Virus record (IMG/VR): IMGVR_UViG_2529292882_000015
DNA: 39,577 bases
Source of the DNA: a virus
Lineage: Duplodnaviria > Heunggongvirae > Uroviricota > Caudoviricetes
Strand: one strand, 5' to 3'
Under the pieces are notes generated by a model. It was not told the DNA's origin, did no database searches, and saw only the letters and a list, made by a program, of their open reading frames with translations. This document shows positions 1,116 to 33,433 of this stretch, piece after piece; the stretch's first letter is position 1, and every line of letters starts with the position of its first letter. A program made the translations under genes and the position numbers.

Positions 1116-1142
1116 CCCTCTGTAGTAACAGAGGGTTTTGTT
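1116..1142. terminator. Bidirectional rho-independent terminator between chromosomal genes and the prophage lysis cassette
   Basis: Stem CCCTCTGT / ACAGAGGG with loop AGTA; A-run upstream and TTTTGTT downstream, so it can terminate in either direction. Confidence 0.5.
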
Positions 1143-1771: not shown

Positions 1772-2397
1772 ACCGCCAGCACCTTACTGGCAGTGATGTA
1801 ACGCGCGCGCCGGTCGTCGATGCCGTTCCTGCCACCATTGATAATCAGAGTTACACGTACAATATCTCCGGAATACTTCATGCAGCCTTTGCTGGAGAAA
1901 AACCACGCCGCGCTACGAGCCGCATATTCGTCCTGCGCCAGCAGTTCAGGATTCTCCATCAGGTCCACTTTCAGGCCGTTTCCGCAGTCACGATAGTTAT
2001 TCAAACCGGTAATCTGGATAAGTCCGCGCCCACGGTAATTCCATCCATCGCCTGGGGCATTGTTACCCATGCGTTTGCTGTACACCAGATTTGCGATCGC
2101 GCGCTGGCGCTCGAGTGGCAATGGTGGTTCACCAGCACGGCGACCCAGTGCGTTGGCCTGTCCCTGAGTGAGACGTCCTGCCCGAACAAAGTTAGCCAGT
2201 CCTGTGACGCTGTAGTTGAAATTCTCCTGCAACCTGGTGAAGCCACCAGACTCATGCCCGACTTGAGCAATAAACATTGCCTGATCTTCTGCTTTGCTGA
2301 TACCAAACTCTTTCATTGCAGAAGTTATATGCGAGAACCAGCGAGCGGCCAGCGCCTCGCTAATACCAGCAGCTCGCTGGAATTGTTTAATGTCCAT
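1768..2397 (-). CDS. Endolysin, glycoside hydrolase family 19 (chitinase-like) type
   Basis: GH19 signature-like motifs (FIAQVGHESGGF; NYRGRGLIQITGLNNY); RBS GAGG 7 nt upstream; sits between holin-like genes and Rz. Confidence 0.8.
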   Translation of the reverse strand: MDIKQFQRAAGISEALAARWFSHITSAMKEFGISKAEDQAMFIAQVGHESGGFTRLQENFNYSVTGLANFVRAGRLTQGQANALGRRAGEPPLPLERQRAIANLVYSKRMGNNAPGDGWNYRGRGLIQITGLNNYRDCGNGLKVDLMENPELLAQDEYAARSAAWFFSSKGCMKYSGDIVRVTLIINGGRNGIDDRRARYITASKVLAV

Positions 2398-2680
2398 GCT
2401 GAGACCTCGTTATCTTGAAAATTTGCACCACGTTCCCTTTTGTCTTGATAAGGGCTGCCAGGAACACGGCTTTGATGATGATTTCTGACCAATCTGCGCA
2501 TATGTAATGCCCGTAAAAAGTACGAATAGGCACGCTGGCAGCAGAGACAATAAGAAGGTAAGCCAGCCACCCGCCCCACCAGCGATGGCGTGACCCGCCA
2601 CGACGGAACAGCAGGACTCTGATTGCAATTCCGCCGCAGATTGCGGCGTTCAGGATGAGAAGTAGCTCAGGACTGGCCAT
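2387..2680 (-). CDS. Small membrane protein, possible second holin or antiholin
   Basis: About 98 aa from the ATG at 2680 (MASPELLLILNAAICGGIAIRVLLF...), 2-3 predicted TM helices, RBS GGAG 8 nt upstream; overlaps the holin end and endolysin start. Confidence 0.4.
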   Translation of the reverse strand: MASPELLLILNAAICGGIAIRVLLFRRGGSRHRWWGGWLAYLLIVSAASVPIRTFYGHYICADWSEIIIKAVFLAALIKTKGNVVQIFKITRSQHGH

Positions 2681-3083
2681 CGTCTTTTCTCCCCGGGATA
2701 AGGTCGCGCGGATTTTCAGAGCTGTGATACAGCCAGATACCAATGCGGACAGCAACGATTGCTGATACGAAAGCACCGGCAGAAAACACAATGCCCTTCT
2801 CAAAAGAATCCTGCGTGATCGTTGGTATAAGGCTGGCAACACCGATGAGAATTGATGCTGTCGCTTTGTAGAAGAGAACTCCGCAGAGGAAGCTGAGAAT
2901 AGCCAGGATCAGCCGCCGTTTTATTGGGTACTCAACTGCCGAGGTAACAAAAATTACCGCACCAGCAAGAGCACCTAACGCTACTTCTGGAGGAACCCCG
3001 GCAACAACGGAAGCCAGCGCACCAAGGCTAAGCCCCTGATTAAGTGACTCCGTTGTCAGCGTGGTTGCCATAGTGACCACCAT
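2667..3083 (-). CDS. Holin-like multi-TM membrane protein
   Basis: 138 aa with several hydrophobic helices and a charged C-terminal tail (RKDDGQS); immediately upstream of the endolysin. Exact start uncertain (3083 or 3071). Confidence 0.5.
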   Translation of the reverse strand: MVVTMATTLTTESLNQGLSLGALASVVAGVPPEVALGALAGAVIFVTSAVEYPIKRRLILAILSFLCGVLFYKATASILIGVASLIPTITQDSFEKGIVFSAGAFVSAIVAVRIGIWLYHSSENPRDLIPGRKDDGQS

Positions 3084-3185
3084 CTATTGTGCATAATAAC
3101 CTCCTTAGTTGGAGAGTTTATCATACACATTTTAACCATATATGGTTGGCTGTGATTGATTATATCTATGGCATATTTTTAACGA

Positions 3186-5588
3186 TCACGCCCATGTCGC
3201 ATCTATGTAGAACGTTGGAGATGTAGTTGTGGACCCTTCAATCGATATTTGTCCTGTTGAAGCATTAATGGTGGCCATTGCCATGCCAAATGAAACGCCA
3301 TCAGCAGTGAACGGTACAGGGACATTTTTGGTTACTTTTGGCCTGCACCACCTCGGAAGCGTTAGAACAGTATTGCCATTCGCAAATGAAGTGGCTGCCA
3401 GTTTAATATTAATTGAATTGGCAGTTAAACTTGACGGTGCCTGTACTGTTACGTTTGTTCCAGCCCACCATTGAACAGCTGCTCTTGGCGTGTAATCAAC
3501 ACGCGACCACCAGTCGATAATGGCAGAGCAGATAATTTCCGCATACAGACGATACCCTAACTGGCTTTGGTGAATGTCATCACGCAGAAGTGGGTCGTAT
3601 TGCGTGTTGAAATATTCTGGATATGGGGCCGGGAGCTGGTGAGTTGTTGTTACACAAATGACGTTATTGCCATATTTCATCATCTGGCGTTTACCAGCTT
3701 CTCGCAACTCTGCGACACCGTCGTAGTTAGAAGATGGCTGGCCAGCCCCTCCAATAAATGACTGGCTATACCACATCCACGGCTCAACCCAAACAGGGAT
3801 ACGACCAAGGCCATTGCAATATAAGACAAACTCATCTATCAGTGCCGCCATATAATCGCCGTTTTGGTTTGCCTGCCCTTCGTTAGTTCCGGCAACCATA
3901 ATAACGATGTAAGCATCACCCGGCCCCTGAGCCTTCAGGAGATCTAACTGTTGCCTCATTGTCTGTCCGGCAACCGCCTTGTTTACAATGCTATATGAAC
4001 GGTGGCCGTTCGCTCCATCCATTAATTGCGGAATGTACGAGCTGAACGCTGAAATGAAATCCTCAGCTGTACTATCACCATGGATAAGGATATGAAGTGG
4101 AGGCTTACAGTGCACACCATTATCAGAGGTGTAGCTGCATAATCCAGTTACACGCGCAGCACCTCCAGATGCCGGGGTCATTGCAACGAACCCAACTTCG
4201 TATACATCCCCTACAGCAGAAGTATCAAATGGTAAGCGTATTCCAACGCCATTCATTGTTATCTGCGCCCAGTTTTTACCTTGCAGTGATACGCCAACGG
4301 TTGCTTTACCCGGGGCGTACGACAGTAAACCTCCTGGCAGCGGGAATGGAGTTCCTTCTGCTACTGGACCACCAATTGGTTTCTGTCTATAAGACCACTG
4401 TGTAGCACCTGGTGCCCCATAGAACATCATCCAACCACCAGAGCATCGCAGAACAATCCCAACTTCTGAGGCGGCCTGAGATTCCATACGAATATGTGCA
4501 GAAATATGCTCTCCAATATCTATTGGTGCGAACAGGCCTGTTGTACGGTCAGTAGTTAAGGGGAAGATAGCTGCGCTATCTGAGGATATGGTGACTTCAC
4601 CTTCATAGAAGAACGTGTCACCATTTATGGAATAAACTTTACAATCTGACCATTCCACTCGCTTCATGCGAATAGGGTTTCGGTTGAGTATGGCCTGCTT
4701 AGCCAGGTAATCCACTTCTCCACCGGTTGTTGTGAAATTAAGATGGGAAAACTCAAAAGTGCATTCACCTTCAAACTTCAGCGACTTATAAAGCGAGTAA
4801 AGATCGCTGTCGAATTTAAGAATGACGTTTTTATCAACGATTACACGGGAGTTTTGCAGATTTCCTGCCTGTGAGGCCGTTCCTGGTATTGTATAAGTTT
4901 TCTTTGTTGCAGAGTGGCAAGGGAAATAAACATAGCCATAGAGATTTACACTCTCCACCCATGCTGCAACAACGTTTGATTGATTGTAAGATGGCATAAC
5001 GGTGATTGGTATCGGCTCAAATTTATCCACGCCACCGATCTTTTTCCATCCGTCAGGCTGAGCAAGAAGAATCAGCACTTCACTGGCAGAAGCACTCGGA
5101 GGGAGAATGGCTATAGGCTGCCCACTGTCATCCCAGCCAAAAATCATATTCCGGCGACTTGATACCTTTGGCACCAGGTTTACACTGTTTTCAGGAACCC
5201 TAAGCGTATTTCTCTGAAGAGCACCGATGTTGAACATCGCATGCTGAATAAGCATGGTCAGGTAGTCGAATGCATCCTCATGGACCTCTGCAAAAAATTT
5301 CCCCTGATTTCTTAAATCAGTTTCCTGCACTGCTGGAAGGTTACGAGTGATTGATATTGTAATGCCTGGCAAAACAGGAGATGACGTAATAACGCTTCCA
5401 CCGGAAGATAAGCCAGCACCTGTAACCATGTAATCTGTCCCCAGGATCATTGGAGAAACAAGACCGTCAGCGGTTATTGTGCTTACATCAAGATCTGTGT
5501 CTTTAAAAATTCTGAAAGTATATGGGAATGATGTCGTGACTCCATTCCCGAGATACTCATTGTGGCTGATTTCGGTTGAGACTGTCAT
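3186..5588 (-). CDS. Tailspike/tail fiber with T7 gp17-like N-terminal adaptor domain and SGNH (GDSL) esterase domain
   Basis: N-terminus MTVSTEISHNEYLGNGVTTSFPYTFRIF resembles the conserved N-terminal domain of T7-type tail fibres; C-terminal third carries SGNH blocks (ILIHGDSTAEDF; VAGTNEG; DDIH); RBS GGAG 7 nt upstream. Confidence 0.8.
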   Translation of the reverse strand: MTVSTEISHNEYLGNGVTTSFPYTFRIFKDTDLDVSTITADGLVSPMILGTDYMVTGAGLSSGGSVITSSPVLPGITISITRNLPAVQETDLRNQGKFFAEVHEDAFDYLTMLIQHAMFNIGALQRNTLRVPENSVNLVPKVSSRRNMIFGWDDSGQPIAILPPSASASEVLILLAQPDGWKKIGGVDKFEPIPITVMPSYNQSNVVAAWVESVNLYGYVYFPCHSATKKTYTIPGTASQAGNLQNSRVIVDKNVILKFDSDLYSLYKSLKFEGECTFEFSHLNFTTTGGEVDYLAKQAILNRNPIRMKRVEWSDCKVYSINGDTFFYEGEVTISSDSAAIFPLTTDRTTGLFAPIDIGEHISAHIRMESQAASEVGIVLRCSGGWMMFYGAPGATQWSYRQKPIGGPVAEGTPFPLPGGLLSYAPGKATVGVSLQGKNWAQITMNGVGIRLPFDTSAVGDVYEVGFVAMTPASGGAARVTGLCSYTSDNGVHCKPPLHILIHGDSTAEDFISAFSSYIPQLMDGANGHRSYSIVNKAVAGQTMRQQLDLLKAQGPGDAYIVIMVAGTNEGQANQNGDYMAALIDEFVLYCNGLGRIPVWVEPWMWYSQSFIGGAGQPSSNYDGVAELREAGKRQMMKYGNNVICVTTTHQLPAPYPEYFNTQYDPLLRDDIHQSQLGYRLYAEIICSAIIDWWSRVDYTPRAAVQWWAGTNVTVQAPSSLTANSINIKLAATSFANGNTVLTLPRWCRPKVTKNVPVPFTADGVSFGMAMATINASTGQISIEGSTTTSPTFYIDATWA

Positions 5589-5692
5589 GTTAATTCTCCA
5601 GATAGTCGCAGCACCCGTTGCGCCGCATATCCGGTTATTCTATTACCCGAAAAACCACATATGGATAGACAACCCATAAATACGAATAGATA

Positions 5693-5707
5693 TTACCTTT
5701 CAGGTGA
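5693..5707. promoter_or_regulatory. Operator-like palindrome TTACC-N5-GGTGA (site 1 of 13)
   Basis: TTACCTTTCAGGTGA, in the divergent region between the tailspike start and the LexA-box promoter. Confidence 0.5.
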
Positions 5708-5744
5708 TTTGCAAAACGTGCTGGATAGCAAACAAATTATTTGA

Positions 5745-5764
5745 TACTGTATAAATATACAGTT
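5745..5764 (+). promoter_or_regulatory. LexA (SOS) box overlapping a promoter-like region
   Basis: TACTGTATAAATATACAGTT matches the consensus TACTGTATATATATACAGTA at 18 of 20 positions with the CTGT-N8-ACAG core; preceded by TTGATA (-35-like); 20 bp upstream of the ATG at 5784. Confidence 0.7.
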
Positions 5765-5783
5765 ATTGCATGGAGAAGATAAG

Positions 5784-6041
5784 ATGCAGCAGTATCACTA
5801 TCCACTGGAAGACGGATTTACCGAAAGGATTCACACGCCGGGAGGCGTCAGGTCACTGGTGGAGAGATCGCACTTGATGAAATTACTCCGGGATCTCGAT
5901 AAGGATGGATTTAATGTCGATGGCCCACTTGCCGAACTGACTGCACTGATTAACTACGTCACCAGCTCACAGATGTCTATGCAGGATCTGCAAACACATC
6001 TCGACTATTGTGCCGAACAATTACGAAAACAAACCAGATAA
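5784..6041 (+). CDS. Small SOS-regulated antirepressor-like protein (paralog of the antirepressor C-terminal domain)
   Basis: 85 aa from the ATG at 5784 with RBS GGAGAAG; clearly similar to the C-terminal ~70 aa of the downstream antirepressor (...LMKLLRDLDKDGFNVDGPLAELTALINY...DLQTHLDY vs ...LMNLLNRLQEDGHDVSGAAAELTTIFCY...DIQTHAEY). Confidence 0.6.
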   Translation: MQQYHYPLEDGFTERIHTPGGVRSLVERSHLMKLLRDLDKDGFNVDGPLAELTALINYVTSSQMSMQDLQTHLDYCAEQLRKQTR

Positions 6042-6072
6042 GGTTTGTAATTACCAAGTGGAGTGCTTATAT

Positions 6073-6087
6073 TTACCTTTGCGGTAA
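6073..6087. promoter_or_regulatory. Operator-like palindrome TTACC-N5-GGTAA (site 2 of 13)
   Basis: TTACCTTTGCGGTAA, in the intergenic region between the small antirepressor-like gene and ant. Confidence 0.5.
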
Positions 6088-6354
6088 ATTTACATCGCAC
6101 TCCTCTTGTGCCATAGTAGTCGGGCACTGGCAAAATCCAGTGCCGGGATTGGCGTCCCGGGTTACTACAGAGGCACATATGCCGCATAAGCGGTTTTTTT
6201 TATGTGTAAAGCGCACCTATTCTATGGTGGGCTGTGTGGGGGCACCGAAAGGTGCGCCGGGTCCTTTGTAGCCGGTTACGCCAACCCTGCACAGTTCACC
6301 ACCAACCGATTGGCGTCGGTAGTGGTGATTAACCTAACTACAAAGGTGATCACT

Positions 6355-7041
6355 ATGACTGCTAACGTAACCCCATCTGTTTTTCATTTTGAATCAGAAG
6401 CAACCATTCGAGCCATTGTTATTGATGGAAATCCTTGGTTTGTTGCCAAAGACGTTATTAAAGCTCTTCAACTGACAAACCCCACTATGTCAATAAAATC
6501 TCTTGATGATGATGAAAGGGCTAAATTTAACTTAGGCCGTCAAGGCGAAACCAATATTATCAACGAGTCAGGCCTCTACACACTGATCCTCCGCTGCCGC
6601 GATGCGGTGACACCAGGCACTATCCCCTACCGCTTTCGTAAATGGGTTACAGGTGAGGTTCTTCCTCAGATCCGCCGCACCGGAAGTTACATTAAAAACT
6701 CGCTCCCGCAGGAAGAACGCATAAAGATGGTTGCCGACCAGGTAGCCAACGCCACAGCATCAGCAGTGATGCAGGCAATGAAGATAGAGAACAAAACCTA
6801 CAGCGCCCCACTGAAGCCCGGCTACCGCAGTCTGATTCATTCTCCGTCTGGTGTTCTCGGCTTGACGGAGAACTCACTGCTGATGAATCTGCTGAACCGG
6901 TTACAGGAAGACGGGCACGACGTATCGGGCGCGGCGGCGGAGCTGACCACCATATTCTGCTACATCGTCGGTGTGAGCAAATGCCTGCGTGATATCCAGA
7001 CACACGCGGAGTACATCAACGACAAGGCAGGGTTCTTCTGA
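6355..7041 (+). CDS. ant: Antirepressor, Bro-N domain family
   Basis: Bro-N-like N-terminus (ATIRAIVIDGNPWFVAKDVIKALQLTNPTMSIKSLDDDERAK); RBS AAGGTGA upstream of the ATG at 6355; sits beside the tailspike gene as in P22 immI. Confidence 0.75.
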   Translation: MTANVTPSVFHFESEATIRAIVIDGNPWFVAKDVIKALQLTNPTMSIKSLDDDERAKFNLGRQGETNIINESGLYTLILRCRDAVTPGTIPYRFRKWVTGEVLPQIRRTGSYIKNSLPQEERIKMVADQVANATASAVMQAMKIENKTYSAPLKPGYRSLIHSPSGVLGLTENSLLMNLLNRLQEDGHDVSGAAAELTTIFCYIVGVSKCLRDIQTHAEYINDKAGFF

Positions 7042-7107
7042 CATGACGGCGGCACAGGGATGTGCCTTTAAATAATTCTGTACAGATTGCAGGTGAATAG
7101 CTTACTA

Positions 7108-7122
7108 TTACCTCACGGGTGA
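7108..7122. promoter_or_regulatory. Operator-like palindrome TTACC-N5-GGTGA (site 3 of 13)
   Basis: TTACCTCACGGGTGA, upstream of the leader mini-ORF and terminator that precede the 7252 gene. Confidence 0.5.
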
Positions 7123-7211
7123 TCCATAGCGATTAGGCACCGATACAGGAGGAGCCCACATGAGAAAATTTGACGAGTACGAAGGCGTTTAACATTCGGA
7201 TAGTTTAATGA

Positions 7212-7234
7212 CGGGGCCATTAGGCCCCGTTTTC
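7212..7234 (+). terminator. Rho-independent terminator/attenuator hairpin in the leader of the 7252 gene
   Basis: GGGGCC-ATTA-GGCCCC followed by GTTTTC; about 20 nt downstream of a 10-codon mini-ORF (7160-7192) that has a strong AGGAGG RBS. Confidence 0.45.
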
Positions 7235-7251
7235 ATGTCTGGAGACAGTTT

Positions 7252-7791
7252 GTGTTAAGTGAAGAAATGCAATTTGCCATGGCTGTAGCTCAAATCGTAA
7301 GTGCAGTCGCGGTTTCGCTTGGCTTGTTCATAGCTATCGCTACTATTATTTATAATGTAAATACAGCGAGAAAAGTACACACTTCAGTATTCCTTGGTGA
7401 AAGCAGGTTTGATGTAGATTATAAGAAAGGCCTATCTACTATGCGCCGCATTCACGAATCGAACAAATCATTCCGCTCTTATATGTATCCAAGCAATGGG
7501 CAGGCTGATCTTACGGATGAAGAAAAGACAGAGAAGAGAGAAATAATTTACTGCCTAGGTTTCTACGAACGCATGGCTGTGAGCGTGAAGCGGAAAACTT
7601 ATGATGAGACCATGATTAAGGAAGTATTTTACAGCTCCGTTGTAAATAACTATCAGATTGCGCTACCTCTTATACAAGCCATTAGAGAAAAAGAAAACAT
7701 AAACACATATTTTAAAGAATATGAATGGTTGGCCACACGATGGAAGGATTGTCCATTGAAGGATAAATCCCCGTGGTACAAGTTTTGGTAA
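7252..7791 (+). CDS. Membrane-anchored protein, candidate superinfection-exclusion/abortive-infection moron
   Basis: GTG start with RBS GGAG; N-terminal TM helix (AMAVAQIVSAVAVSLGLFIAIATIIY) then a soluble domain; AT-rich coding sequence unlike neighbours; plus strand inside the minus-strand late region, at the position sieA occupies in P22. Confidence 0.6.
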   Translation: MLSEEMQFAMAVAQIVSAVAVSLGLFIAIATIIYNVNTARKVHTSVFLGESRFDVDYKKGLSTMRRIHESNKSFRSYMYPSNGQADLTDEEKTEKREIIYCLGFYERMAVSVKRKTYDETMIKEVFYSSVVNNYQIALPLIQAIREKENINTYFKEYEWLATRWKDCPLKDKSPWYKFW

Positions 7792-18842: not shown

Positions 18843-19447
18843 CAGGACAACCTCGCAATGGTAAACTCGTCAACCGGTGGCTGTGGTTCCTGTGATTCAT
18901 TCTGGCTATGCGAGCCAGCACTAAGAATCACGCGATTGTACATATTGAGGGCAAACGTACCGAGGTCTGCATTCCCAGTCAGCGCCATGTTAATAGCTGC
19001 CGCAAGACGCCAGGCCAACGCCTCCATAAAAATGGCATCAAACATGTTCACATCTGAAACGCGAGATACATACTTGAGCCATGCCTGCGGCTGGTCTGTG
19101 TAGATCAACTTTCCTGTTCCGTTGGTGTCTGCACCAACTTCGTACTGAACGCGCATTGCTGCTGTTGGATTGCGTACACCAGGAAGCATAATTTCAGTAA
19201 TGCGCAGACAATCGGACGGGTACTGGTACGCATATTCCCAGTCAGGCGGTGGATTGCTCGTATCTGCAAGCGCCACGCGTTTGGTAGCAAAGTTCCAGTC
19301 AAAATCAGAAAGCACAGCATCACGGCAGGCCTCAAAGTGCAGCGAACATTCCCCCGCTTCCTTGCTGGCTTCCTTCAGGCTGTTAATGCTGCGGCTGTTG
19401 CCAATATTGGACAGCGCACGATTGCAGATCTCTACTACAGAGGCCAT
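18842..19447 (-). CDS. Tail tubular protein A-like (adaptor)
   Basis: 201 aa, T7 gp11-like in size and position. Confidence 0.55.
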   Translation of the reverse strand: MASVVEICNRALSNIGNSRSINSLKEASKEAGECSLHFEACRDAVLSDFDWNFATKRVALADTSNPPPDWEYAYQYPSDCLRITEIMLPGVRNPTAAMRVQYEVGADTNGTGKLIYTDQPQAWLKYVSRVSDVNMFDAIFMEALAWRLAAAINMALTGNADLGTFALNMYNRVILSAGSHSQNESQEPQPPVDEFTIARLS

Positions 19448-24975: not shown

Positions 24976-25052
24976 GTGGCATTAGCTCAGCTGGACAGAG
25001 CAACCGCCTTCTAAGCGGTTGGTCGCAGGTTCGAATCCTGCATGCCACGCCA
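24976..25052 (+). tRNA. tRNA-Arg, anticodon UCU (reads AGA)
   Basis: Cloverleaf folded by hand: acceptor GTGGCAT/ATGCCAC, D-arm GCTC-AGCTGGACA-GAGC, anticodon stem ACCGC/GCGGT with loop CTTCTAA, T-arm GCAGG-TTCGAAT-CCTGC, discriminator G and encoded CCA. Confidence 0.9.
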
Positions 25053-32415: not shown

Positions 32416-32441
32416 TATGAAAAGACCGCCGGATGGCGGTC
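32416..32441 (-). terminator. Rho-independent terminator after the cro-like gene (tR1-like)
   Basis: Minus strand GACCGCC-ATCC-GGCGGTC followed by TTTTCATAT. Confidence 0.5.
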
Positions 32442-32463
32442 TACAGAGGTTTGTGGCTGGATA

Positions 32464-32848: not shown

Positions 32849-33433
32849 ATGAAAAGTATCCAGGACGTCCGCAGGCAAAATCTCAACGACTTGATCGACC
32901 GTGAATTCAATGGTGTTCAGACGCGGATGGCAGAAAAACTTGGAACTCAGGCAAATCTGGTAAACCGCTGGGCTCTTGGCAAGAAGGTTATCGGCGACCA
33001 GGTTGCGCGAAAAATTGAAGCTGCCGCCAATAAACCCCGTAACTGGCTTGATATCGATCGCTCGCTTTCTCAGGAAGGTTTTCAGCCTGTCGGACCGAGC
33101 GACATTGGTCAGCTGGCGGCTCACAACCTGGAACGCTGGATGAGCGAAAGCCGCGACCTTTCAACGCAGGGAAAACTTCACCGCGCATCCGGCGTCGCCC
33201 AGGTGACAATCAGCCGCCTGTTAAACAATGAGGTCAGCGTTTCCATTTCCACCCTGGAGAATGTTGCATCCGCATTCGGGCGTCACGGCTATGAATTACT
33301 GATTCACCCGCACGACCCTGCGACTATCAACTATGACCGCTCGCGCTACGCTTTGTTACCCGAAACCGAGAAAGCAAAGATCGAAAGTTACATTGAATTT
33401 GTCATCAACCAGAACGAAAAAAACAAACAATAA
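32849..33433 (+). CDS. Prophage repressor candidate with two Xre-type HTH domains and no peptidase domain
   Basis: Two HTH-like segments (QTRMAEKLGTQANLVNRWALGKK and LHRASGVAQVTISRLLNNEVSVSISTLENVASAFG); divergent from the cro-like gene across three operators; followed by a terminator and the pL-like promoter; no S24/LexA-like C-terminal domain. Confidence 0.6.
   Translation: MKSIQDVRRQNLNDLIDREFNGVQTRMAEKLGTQANLVNRWALGKKVIGDQVARKIEAAANKPRNWLDIDRSLSQEGFQPVGPSDIGQLAAHNLERWMSESRDLSTQGKLHRASGVAQVTISRLLNNEVSVSISTLENVASAFGRHGYELLIHPHDPATINYDRSRYALLPETEKAKIESYIEFVINQNEKNKQ

Follow-up and report, generated by a model that had tools for sequence, protein, structure and literature searches.

The window analysed here, a stretch of 39,577 nucleotides (nt) recorded as IMG/VR virus IMGVR_UViG_2529292882_000015, is an epsilon15/phiV10-like (Uetakevirus) temperate phage of Escherichia coli, and its region 5600-7250 shares 93-97% identity with phiV10, TL-2011b, ZX5 and Phi05_1387B. 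Our subject is the 313-bp spacer at 6042-6354, which extends from the stop codon of an open reading frame (ORF) of 85 amino acids (aa) to the ATG of the antirepressor gene ant at 6355. Both genes lie on the + strand. The regulated gene, ant (6355-7041), encodes a protein of 228 aa with a Bro-N and a C-terminal domain (Pfam Bro-N, 5e-20; PHROG anti-repressor Ant, 2e-56), and the smaller ORF (5784-6041), preceded by a perfect LexA box (TACTGTATAAATATACAGTT, 5745-5764), encodes a paralogue of the C-terminal domain. Between the two we found an intact copy of a known phage RNA circuit, composed of an IsrK-like leader and a c4 RNA, and its mechanism is not of a new kind. The original prediction, drawn from the sequence alone, had proposed that a terminator and extensive RNA structure separate ant from the LexA unit, and this description was borne out. 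It had also offered a choice between a conditional read-through switch and a small RNA; the matches to the isrK and C4 families identify a small regulatory RNA rather than an unknown read-through switch.

An Rfam and folding analysis had been proposed in the original prediction. The Rfam scan covered the whole window, and the isrK and C4 matches reached E-values of about 1e-14 to 1e-16. The isrK family (RF01394) matches 6124-6200 over its full length with 74.7 bits, compared to a gathering score of 50, and delimits an IsrK-like leader or short small RNA at 6124-6201 on the + strand. C4 (RF01695) matches 6220-6306 on the same strand with 79.5 bits, compared to a gathering score of 45 (E = 3.8e-14, model positions 1-87, full length). 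A third family, c4-a1b1 (RF03163), matches 6111-6163 with 45.2 bits (E = 4.7e-10), below its gathering score of 46.7, and scores 50-51 bits in relatives and in P1.

The c4-type antisense RNA has a minimum free energy (MFE) fold identical to the model structure, in which a closing stem of 17 bp encloses two hairpins and 8 nt of single-stranded junction. The stability of this fold is specific to the + strand (z = -3.6, compared to -0.7 on the - strand). By alignment to the annotated 77-nt c4 of P1, the mature RNA is predicted to span approximately 6226-6303, and it contains an acceptor-stem-like helix with 3' CCACCA. Hairpin 1 of c4 (6243-6256) is the GNRA-type hairpin GCACC-GAAA-GGTGC that the original prediction had recognized. 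The loop of hairpin 2 holds the effector b' (CCUUUGUAG, 6263-6271), while the junction holds the effector a' (ACGCCAA, 6278-6284).

Both effectors find complements on either side of c4. Downstream, the hairpin ACCGAU-UGGC-GUCGGU (6305-6320, z = -3.1) presents a2 (UUGGCGU, 6310-6316), the complement of a', in the same way as hairpin 2 of the leader presents a1. An outer stem around this hairpin, UCACCAC 6296-6302 with GUGGUGA 6322-6328, re-uses the 3' strand of c4. Further downstream, b2 (CUACAAAGG, 6338-6346) is a perfect 9-bp complement of b' with a duplex energy of -12.6 kcal/mol, and covers the Shine-Dalgarno sequence of ant (AAGGUG, 6343-6348), 6 nt upstream of the AUG. Upstream, the leader carries a1 (UUGGCGU, 6149-6155), an exact complement of a' that occupies isrK hairpin 2 (CCGGGAU-UGGC-GUCCCGG, 6143-6161) at its loop and the pairs closing it, and b1 (CUACAGAGG, 6165-6173) in the linker that follows. 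The a' effector thus forms 7 bp with each of a1 and a2, and b' forms 9 bp with b2 and 9 bp, including one G.U pair, with b1. Due to the G.U pair, b1 was absent from an exact Watson-Crick scan and was located by mapping the annotated b1 of P1 onto the leader. The complementarities, hairpin 6143-6161, the closing stem of c4 and two promoter-like sites had not been part of the original prediction.

The remainder of the leader consists of hairpin 1 and a terminator. Hairpin 1 (GGCACTGG/CCAGTGCC, loop CAAAAT, ~6123-6144) is hairpin 1 of the isrK and c4-a1b1 models and shows compensatory changes in the alignment; it corresponds to the hairpin with an 8-bp stem reported originally. The intrinsic terminator, GCCGC-AUAA-GCGGU followed by U8, was detected by a terminator scan at 6181-6201, where it forms the 3' hairpin of the isrK model. 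Its existence had been anticipated, at a position approximately 10 nt too far to the right (6192-6212). The MFE fold of the leader contains the terminator and leaves b1 unpaired, and 20 modules show no variation in the T-run. Since the stem of 5 bp is short, the terminator is presumably leaky, and read-through of the homologous terminator of Gifsy-1 is partial (PMC4825925).

Some other features of the leader were recorded. We considered the loop of isrK hairpin 1, GCAAAAUC, as a further target of c4 and rejected it, as it shows no covariation with b', reads UAUAAAG in the SfV group and is inverted in two relatives. In these two, L018 (~2270) and the minus-strand copy of L016, GCACTGG-CAAAATC-CAGTGC is inverted exactly to GCACTGG-ATTTTGC-CAGTGC, an apparent quasi-palindrome inversion. 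From the terminator to c4, the linker (6201-6219) is 6-9 nt shorter in the window, the L068-minus and the Tyrion types than in most modules. It contains GCGCACCU, a complement of AGGUGCGC (6250-6257) on the 3' side of hairpin 1 in c4, and the two may form an alternative pairing specific to the precursor. Finally, three exact extra copies of the b1 sequence CTACAGAGG lie at 1117-1125 (-), 19435-19443 (+) and 32441-32449 (+), and the pattern CTACARAGG has six matches in the window compared to 0.28 expected, three of which belong to the module. No a site was found in the window beside any of the three copies, which could be due to chance or be additional contacts of c4.

To assess the complementarities across phages, we assembled a comparison set of 79 close relatives taken from IMG/VR, P1 and a further 15 loci from more distant phages. 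Adjacent isrK and C4 matches on the same strand occur in all compared loci but one; in the exception, Salmonella phage SW-37, only C4 reaches the gathering score, and a1 and b1 are still present. From this set we took 21 representative modules, from phages of E. coli, Klebsiella, Enterobacter, Salmonella, Shigella, Actinobacillus and Hamiltonella, plus P1. They comprise six a' heptamers and approximately 15 b' loops, with a-types and b-types freely recombined. The a1 site is an exact complement of a' in all 21 modules and a2 in 20 of them, while b1 and b2 are complements of 6-11 bp to b' at fixed offsets in every module, and b1 co-varies with b' and b2 over the approximately 15 loop types. Each change in a' or b' among the 21 modules is matched at its cognate sites.

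The same trend is detectable in formal counts on an alignment of 20 sequences. Between a1 and a', both sides have changed in five out of seven pairs and 96.4% of the cells are paired; between a' and a2, both sides have changed in all five variable pairs and 96.8% of the cells are paired. The closing stem of c4 is 100% paired, with eight pairs changed on both sides, and four out of five pairs of c4 hairpin 1 are compensatory. None of 500 shuffles reached the observed values, and slid controls had approximately 40% of the cells paired. These counts are limited to the a sites and to the internal helices because the MAFFT alignment loses register at the b sites, as it also does at the a' of P1 and the a2 of APSE. 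The b sites were therefore assessed by a complementarity search in each module; the non-cognate control of this search was diluted, with near-identical effectors counted as different, and was not used as a statistic. Overall, the comparison provides direct evidence for contacts of the c4 loop and junction with the leader as well as with the ribosome-binding site of ant.

The comparison also returned modules in unexpected places. A second isrK-c4 module, on the opposite strand, is present in some of the close relatives (L016 at 2197-3120 minus, L013, L030, L031, L032, L040, L045, L057 and L068). The minus-strand module of L016 drives a second Bro-N ant paralogue and has the a-type AGACCAA/UUGGUCU, different from that of its first module, so that one prophage would host two c4 circuits that do not cross-react. 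The copy of L030 near 1409 is a recombinant, whose a1 (UUGGCGU) is mismatched to its own a' and a2. In SfV and several Stx phages (L087, L088, L089 (SfV) and L093), the isrK-c4 module lies within genes called 'peptidase', 'transcriptional regulator' or 'putative phage regulatory protein', between cro/cII-like genes and the replication gene O. These gene calls probably run across non-coding RNA.

We identified two promoter-like sites upstream of the leader. The main promoter of the module, P-b (6089-6117, + strand), was found by a promoter scan as a sigma-70-like site, TTTACA-17 nt-CATAGT, with a TGn extended -10. It ends 6 nt upstream of the 5' end of isrK, which coincides with its predicted start at ~6124. 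All 21 modules have a -35/17 nt/-10 site whose end lies 6-7 nt ahead of the start of isrK; in P1, one of the 21, the promoter P1c4 (P51b) is annotated at this position, and on this comparison P-b is its homologue. The second site, P-a (TTGTAA-17 nt-TATATT, 6045-6073, + strand), came from the same scan and is a candidate upstream promoter. Its -35/-10 pair is kept in Uetakevirus-type relatives despite unrelated flanks (L041 and the minus-strand copy of L016). The scan returned no promoter-like site between c4 and ant. The proposal that ant is insulated from the LexA promoter therefore holds insofar as a terminator lies between them, but the module has its own conserved sigma-70 promoter, from which ant would be transcribed, and a second one overlapped by an operator.

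This operator is the palindrome ATTTACC-TTTGC-GGTAAAT at 6071-6089, with the core TTACC-N5-GGTAA at 6073-6087, a putative site of the phage repressor. The palindrome had been noticed before, and it is real: it is one of 12 sites of the TTACC-N5-GGTAA family found in the window with up to one mismatch, compared to 0.68 expected, and none of 100 shuffles reached 12. Three of the sites sit between a divergent 76-aa ORF and the gene of an HTH_3 protein (32849-33433), and further ones occupy intergenic positions of the early region. Because of this excess and of the clustering beside the helix-turn-helix (HTH) repressor gene, we read the palindrome as an operator that is probably bound by the repressor encoded at 32849-33433. 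A local operator of the Arc/Mnt type does not agree with its membership in the operator family of the phage repressor. The operator overlaps the -10 and the predicted start of P-a and abuts the -35 of P-b, a layout like that of Oc4, P51a and P51b in P1, with P-a placed like P2c4 (P51a). It lies within an interrupted inverted repeat (GGAGTGC 6060-6066 / GCACTCC 6097-6103) that, as RNA over 6060-6103, has a folding energy of -18.4 kcal/mol (z = -5.4). In phiV10 (L001, ~3456-3501), the operator is inside an 18-bp perfect palindrome, GGAGTGCTTATATTTACC ... GGTAAATATAAGCACTCC, which is interrupted in the window; this repeat may be a larger protein-binding site or an RNA hairpin of the SOS transcript. 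Two weaker operator-like sequences, TTACC-N5-GGTGA with one mismatch each, flank the block of mini-ant and ant: 5693-5707, approximately 40 bp upstream of the LexA box, and 7108-7122, just downstream of ant. The domain search returned no S24 peptidase domain in the HTH repressor, a feature that fits SOS induction through a LexA-controlled antirepressor.

The closest known counterpart is immI of P1/P7. The P1 record annotates, in order, Oc4 (Op51), P2c4 (P51a), P1c4 (P51b), a1, b1, c4, a2, b2 and icd, and the leader and c4 of P1 immI match the window's three Rfam models, in unchanged order. The two systems share the order of parts (operator and upstream promoter, second promoter, two-hairpin a1-b1 leader, terminator-like hairpin, c4, a2, b2), the fold of c4, the location of a' in the junction and of b' in the hairpin-2 loop, as seen in the P1 sequence, and the position of b2 on a ribosome-binding site. 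They differ in that b2 of the window masks the ribosome-binding site of ant itself, because there is no icd in between. Moreover, Ant of the window is a Bro-N protein rather than Ant1/2, the operator is that of a lambda-like HTH repressor rather than of C1, the neighbour immediately upstream is a paralogue of the Ant C-terminal domain under LexA control, and the specificity differs because the a and b sequences differ. The mechanism of P1 is taken from the GenBank annotation and from citing papers. According to these, c4 is a substrate of RNase P and a stable RNA of approximately 77 nt (Hartmann et al. 1995, cited in PMC11143913), and represses Ant synthesis in trans (Citron and Schuster 1990, as cited).

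The second counterpart is Gifsy-1, where PisrK drives the transcription of anrP into a translationally silent transcript (Hershko-Shalev et al. 2016, PMC4825925). IsrK provided in trans raises anrP translation 139-fold, and compensatory mutations indicate that G28:C162 and G31:C159 behave as base pairs (PMC4825925). These pairs of helix b-I are a1:a' pairs of the window's a-type, and the same nucleotides are present in the window. Also in common are the full-length isrK match, a1 UUGGCGU at +26 to +32, the succession of terminator, c4-type segment and antirepressor gene, and a module promoter that drives the antirepressor. An orf45 with a stop overlapping the ant AUG is absent from the window, whose upstream neighbour is a LexA-controlled mini-Ant beside the tailspike gene (3186-5588, minus strand) rather than antQ. 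In the published model of Gifsy-1, the c4 segment is treated as an ORF or mRNA, and no link to P1 c4 is drawn (PMC4825925). Binding of Hfq and activation of antirepressor translation in trans have been reported for the isrK family in Salmonella only.

Similar modules are already annotated in the APSE phages of Hamiltonella (LR794147; Rouil et al. 2020, PMC7313666), where isrK and C4 appear together upstream of a Bro-N gene and their a and b sites co-vary with those found here. The APSE-7 record marks isrK, C4, a' and b', with the labels of a' and b' swapped relative to P1 usage. APSE differs in its specificity (GUCUCAA / CCUUGUUAG) and has no LexA unit or TTACC operator upstream. The original prediction had drawn an analogy to the sar/arc/mnt controls of P22 ant, which applies to the role and not to the descent. 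The immI of P22 is a secondary immunity region in which a small RNA prevents an antirepressor from being translated (PMC12197685), the role proposed for the window, but sar is made from the opposite strand of the arc-ant interval, whereas the RNA of the window is on the same strand and makes short loop contacts. We found no Rfam match to sar at E<=5 and no minus-strand promoter-like site in 6042-6354. None of the flanking genes screened (5784-6041, ant and 7252-7791) matched Arc or Mnt, with ORFs shorter than 60 aa outside the screen, and no other + strand ORF of at least 60 aa flanks ant. The CI RNA of P4, cited as a structural analogue by the authors of the Gifsy-1 study (PMC4825925), resembles the system in being a processed leader RNA that pairs with repeated sites, seqA and seqC, upstream and downstream of itself. 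The outcome in P4 is instead the premature termination of the transcription of replication genes, and homology with the window is not implied.

We consider it highly likely that the spacer is an immI-type RNA control module for ant, homologous to c4-icd-ant of P1/P7 and to isrK-STnc1160-anrP of Gifsy-1. The parts, their order, the complementarities and the covariation derive from the sequence and the comparison, while the rest of the mechanism is modeled on P1 and Gifsy-1. Very probably, the module keeps ant untranslated in the prophage. Transcripts reading through the terminator at 6201 would yield c4, which RNase P probably excises as it does in P1. The RNA would accumulate in the lysogen and act in trans, pairing first with a2 in its hairpin loop and next with b2, so that the ribosome-binding site would be occluded and Ant not translated. 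Terminated IsrK-like leaders would bind the same surfaces of c4 and, since they carry a1 and b1, could compete for it. If over-produced, they would either titrate c4 or open the long transcript, and translation of Ant would follow. Consistent with this, over-expression of IsrK permits antirepressor translation in Gifsy-1 (PMC4825925). Through the operator, the phage repressor would control the upstream promoter at 6045-6073 and possibly also the main one. Because this repressor is without an S24 cleavage domain, the loss of its activity could be set off by the LexA-controlled mini-Ant; it would raise the leader and ant transcripts above the c4 pool, thus locking in induction.

Several observations weigh against this interpretation. 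We infer promoter use, terminator leakiness, c4 processing and action in trans for this phage. Single duplexes in the window beat shuffled targets only modestly, and 8 to 42 out of 1,000 shuffles equal them; the case for antisense pairing is strong because of the covariation and not because of the individual duplexes. The c4-a1b1 score, at 45.2 compared to 46.7 bits, is just short of the gathering score and thus marginal. In Gifsy-1, mutations of a1 in cis (G28A, G31A) raise rather than lower basal anrP translation, which is at odds with a simple decoy (PMC4825925). The orf45 of the Gifsy-1 model, with its stop overlapping the anrP AUG, has no counterpart among the ORFs of the window: the frames of the spacer reach stops at 6269-6271 and 6330-6332 or continue in frame into ant, and none ends at the ant AUG. 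A repressor bound at -53 to -35 of the main promoter may repress or activate it. Furthermore, the LexA unit is not always next to the module. In approximately one third of the close relatives, an insert of ~830 bp with terminators separates the two, which makes the module autonomous and indicates that direct SOS read-through into it is not conserved. We had considered LexA read-through as a conserved design, and this arrangement weakens it.

The alternative that survives best, although we regard it as unlikely, is activation alone in the style of Gifsy-1. A long isrK-c4-ant transcript would be inactive in cis through a1:a' pairing, and the short IsrK-like RNA would open it in trans; the c4 segment, instead of working as a free antisense repressor, would matter as a stretch of the mRNA or as an upstream ORF. 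In its favour, the window shares the a-type of Gifsy-1 and has its a1:a' pairs at the positions tested there, the raised basal expression from cis mutations of a1 is what this model predicts, and the 3' strand of c4 can pair alternatively with GUGGUGA 6322-6328. However, an equivalent of orf45 is missing, as the frame of ATG 6224 stops at 6269-6271 and that of ATG 6202 runs into ant. The model also has no need for b' to co-vary, in every module, with a b2 that covers the Shine-Dalgarno sequence, a stable processed RNA (STnc1160) exists in Salmonella, and the homologous RNA of P1 is a genetically defined trans repressor (P1 annotation; Citron and Schuster 1990, as cited).

Rather improbable is a second alternative, in which transcriptional immunity like that of P4 CI is the main layer and c4, bound to nascent a1/b1 or to a2/b2, causes termination at 6201 or Rho-dependent termination inside ant. 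The b1 site ends 8 nt upstream of the terminator stem, and work by Biere, Citron and Schuster in 1992 is said to have found that binding of P1 c4 leads to transcriptional polarity on ant. The authors of the Gifsy-1 study themselves raise the analogy with P4 CI for STnc1160 (PMC4825925). Yet b2 sits directly on the ant Shine-Dalgarno sequence, so that a block of translation is the simplest reading; co-expression of STnc1160 left the toxicity of IsrK unreduced in Gifsy-1, and the MFE fold contains no anti-terminator. The third alternative, a purely cis-acting switch whose signal-sensing leader decides the passage of 6201 and which involves no RNA in trans, accommodates a real intrinsic terminator with a short 5-bp stem and the partial read-through of its Gifsy-1 homologue. 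We find it very unlikely, as the Rfam scan gave no match to a riboswitch or leader family (the best was speF, E = 0.61), the terminator forms with b1 unpaired in the MFE fold, and the three-site covariation with the loop and junction of c4 would be left without explanation.

We give almost no credence to a coding function of the region, be it an N-terminally extended Ant of 279 aa from ATG 6202 or small peptides within 6202-6354: although the ORF 6202-7041 is open and in frame with ant and orf45 was detected as a tagged protein in Gifsy-1, relatives carry indels of 1 and 2 nt, so that no reading frame is conserved in this stretch (b' measures 8, 9 or 10 nt, and GGTACGCC alternates with GGTTACGCC), the substitutions are compensatory as expected of RNA stems, no Shine-Dalgarno sequence precedes 6202, which directly follows the U-tract, and the Gifsy-1 authors report conservation of the nucleotide and not of the amino-acid sequence (PMC4825925).

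The immI-type module can be extended into a more specific proposal, which we put forward tentatively and would sooner expect to fail than to hold. Here the IsrK-like leader would be a dedicated anti-antisense decoy, and the locus a commitment switch with three layers. The SOS response would clear LexA from 5745-5764, and mini-Ant, a stand-alone Ant C-terminal domain, would be made and start to disable the HTH repressor, which is not cleavable. Next, the promoter at 6045-6073, which is under operator control, would fire, and in the gene arrangement of the window the LexA transcript may also reach the terminator at 6201. A flood of terminated a1-b1 RNAs would soak up the c4 pool, and only then would full-length Ant be translated, making induction irreversible.

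The genes around the spacer complete the picture. The 85-aa protein shares 40% identity with Ant residues 147-224 (E = 1e-19), and both belong to phrog_450; with 40% identity to the last 80 residues of Ant, the label 'mini-antirepressor' is reasonable. The LexA box and the 85-aa ORF are kept in approximately 70 relatives. The phage thus carries two antirepressor-like genes under separate control, LexA for mini-Ant and probably c4 for ant. In ZX5, whose spacer is 89% identical to that of the window, over-expression of the Bro-N antirepressor at the equivalent position favours the lytic cycle (PMC9782041). The insert found in relatives codes, in L010 (1378-2106, minus), for a Cys-rich protein of 242 aa with a hydrophobic N-terminus, flanked by terminator-like hairpins and with its own TTACC operator. 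The window also bears a phage-borne tRNA-Arg with anticodon UCU at 24976-25052 (+).

The spacer is found at a coverage of at least 80% in 454 out of 5,426 complete E. coli genomes, and in the E. coli records listed RefSeq has no feature beneath it; the homologous interval of phiV10 is annotated only with a 'terminator' and a misc_feature. Our literature search found no paper linking c4 with phiV10 or epsilon15, and in a review of 2025 IsrK and c4 appear as two distinct systems (PMC12197685). An unannotated and highly conserved interval of 313 bp is thereby explained: in epsilon15/phiV10-like prophages, the large antirepressor would be gated by an RNA immunity module of the P1 type. With IsrK linked to the a1-b1 leader of c4, a simple decoy suggests itself as a reading of the Gifsy-1 data. 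If the commitment switch were true, the 'orf45/STnc1160' of Gifsy-1 would be a c4 RNA, IsrK would activate by titrating it, and two systems treated separately in the Gifsy-1 study and the 2025 review would be unified. The interchangeable a and b specificities, together with the prophages that host two modules, would represent a natural set of orthogonal pairs of RNA repressors and targets.

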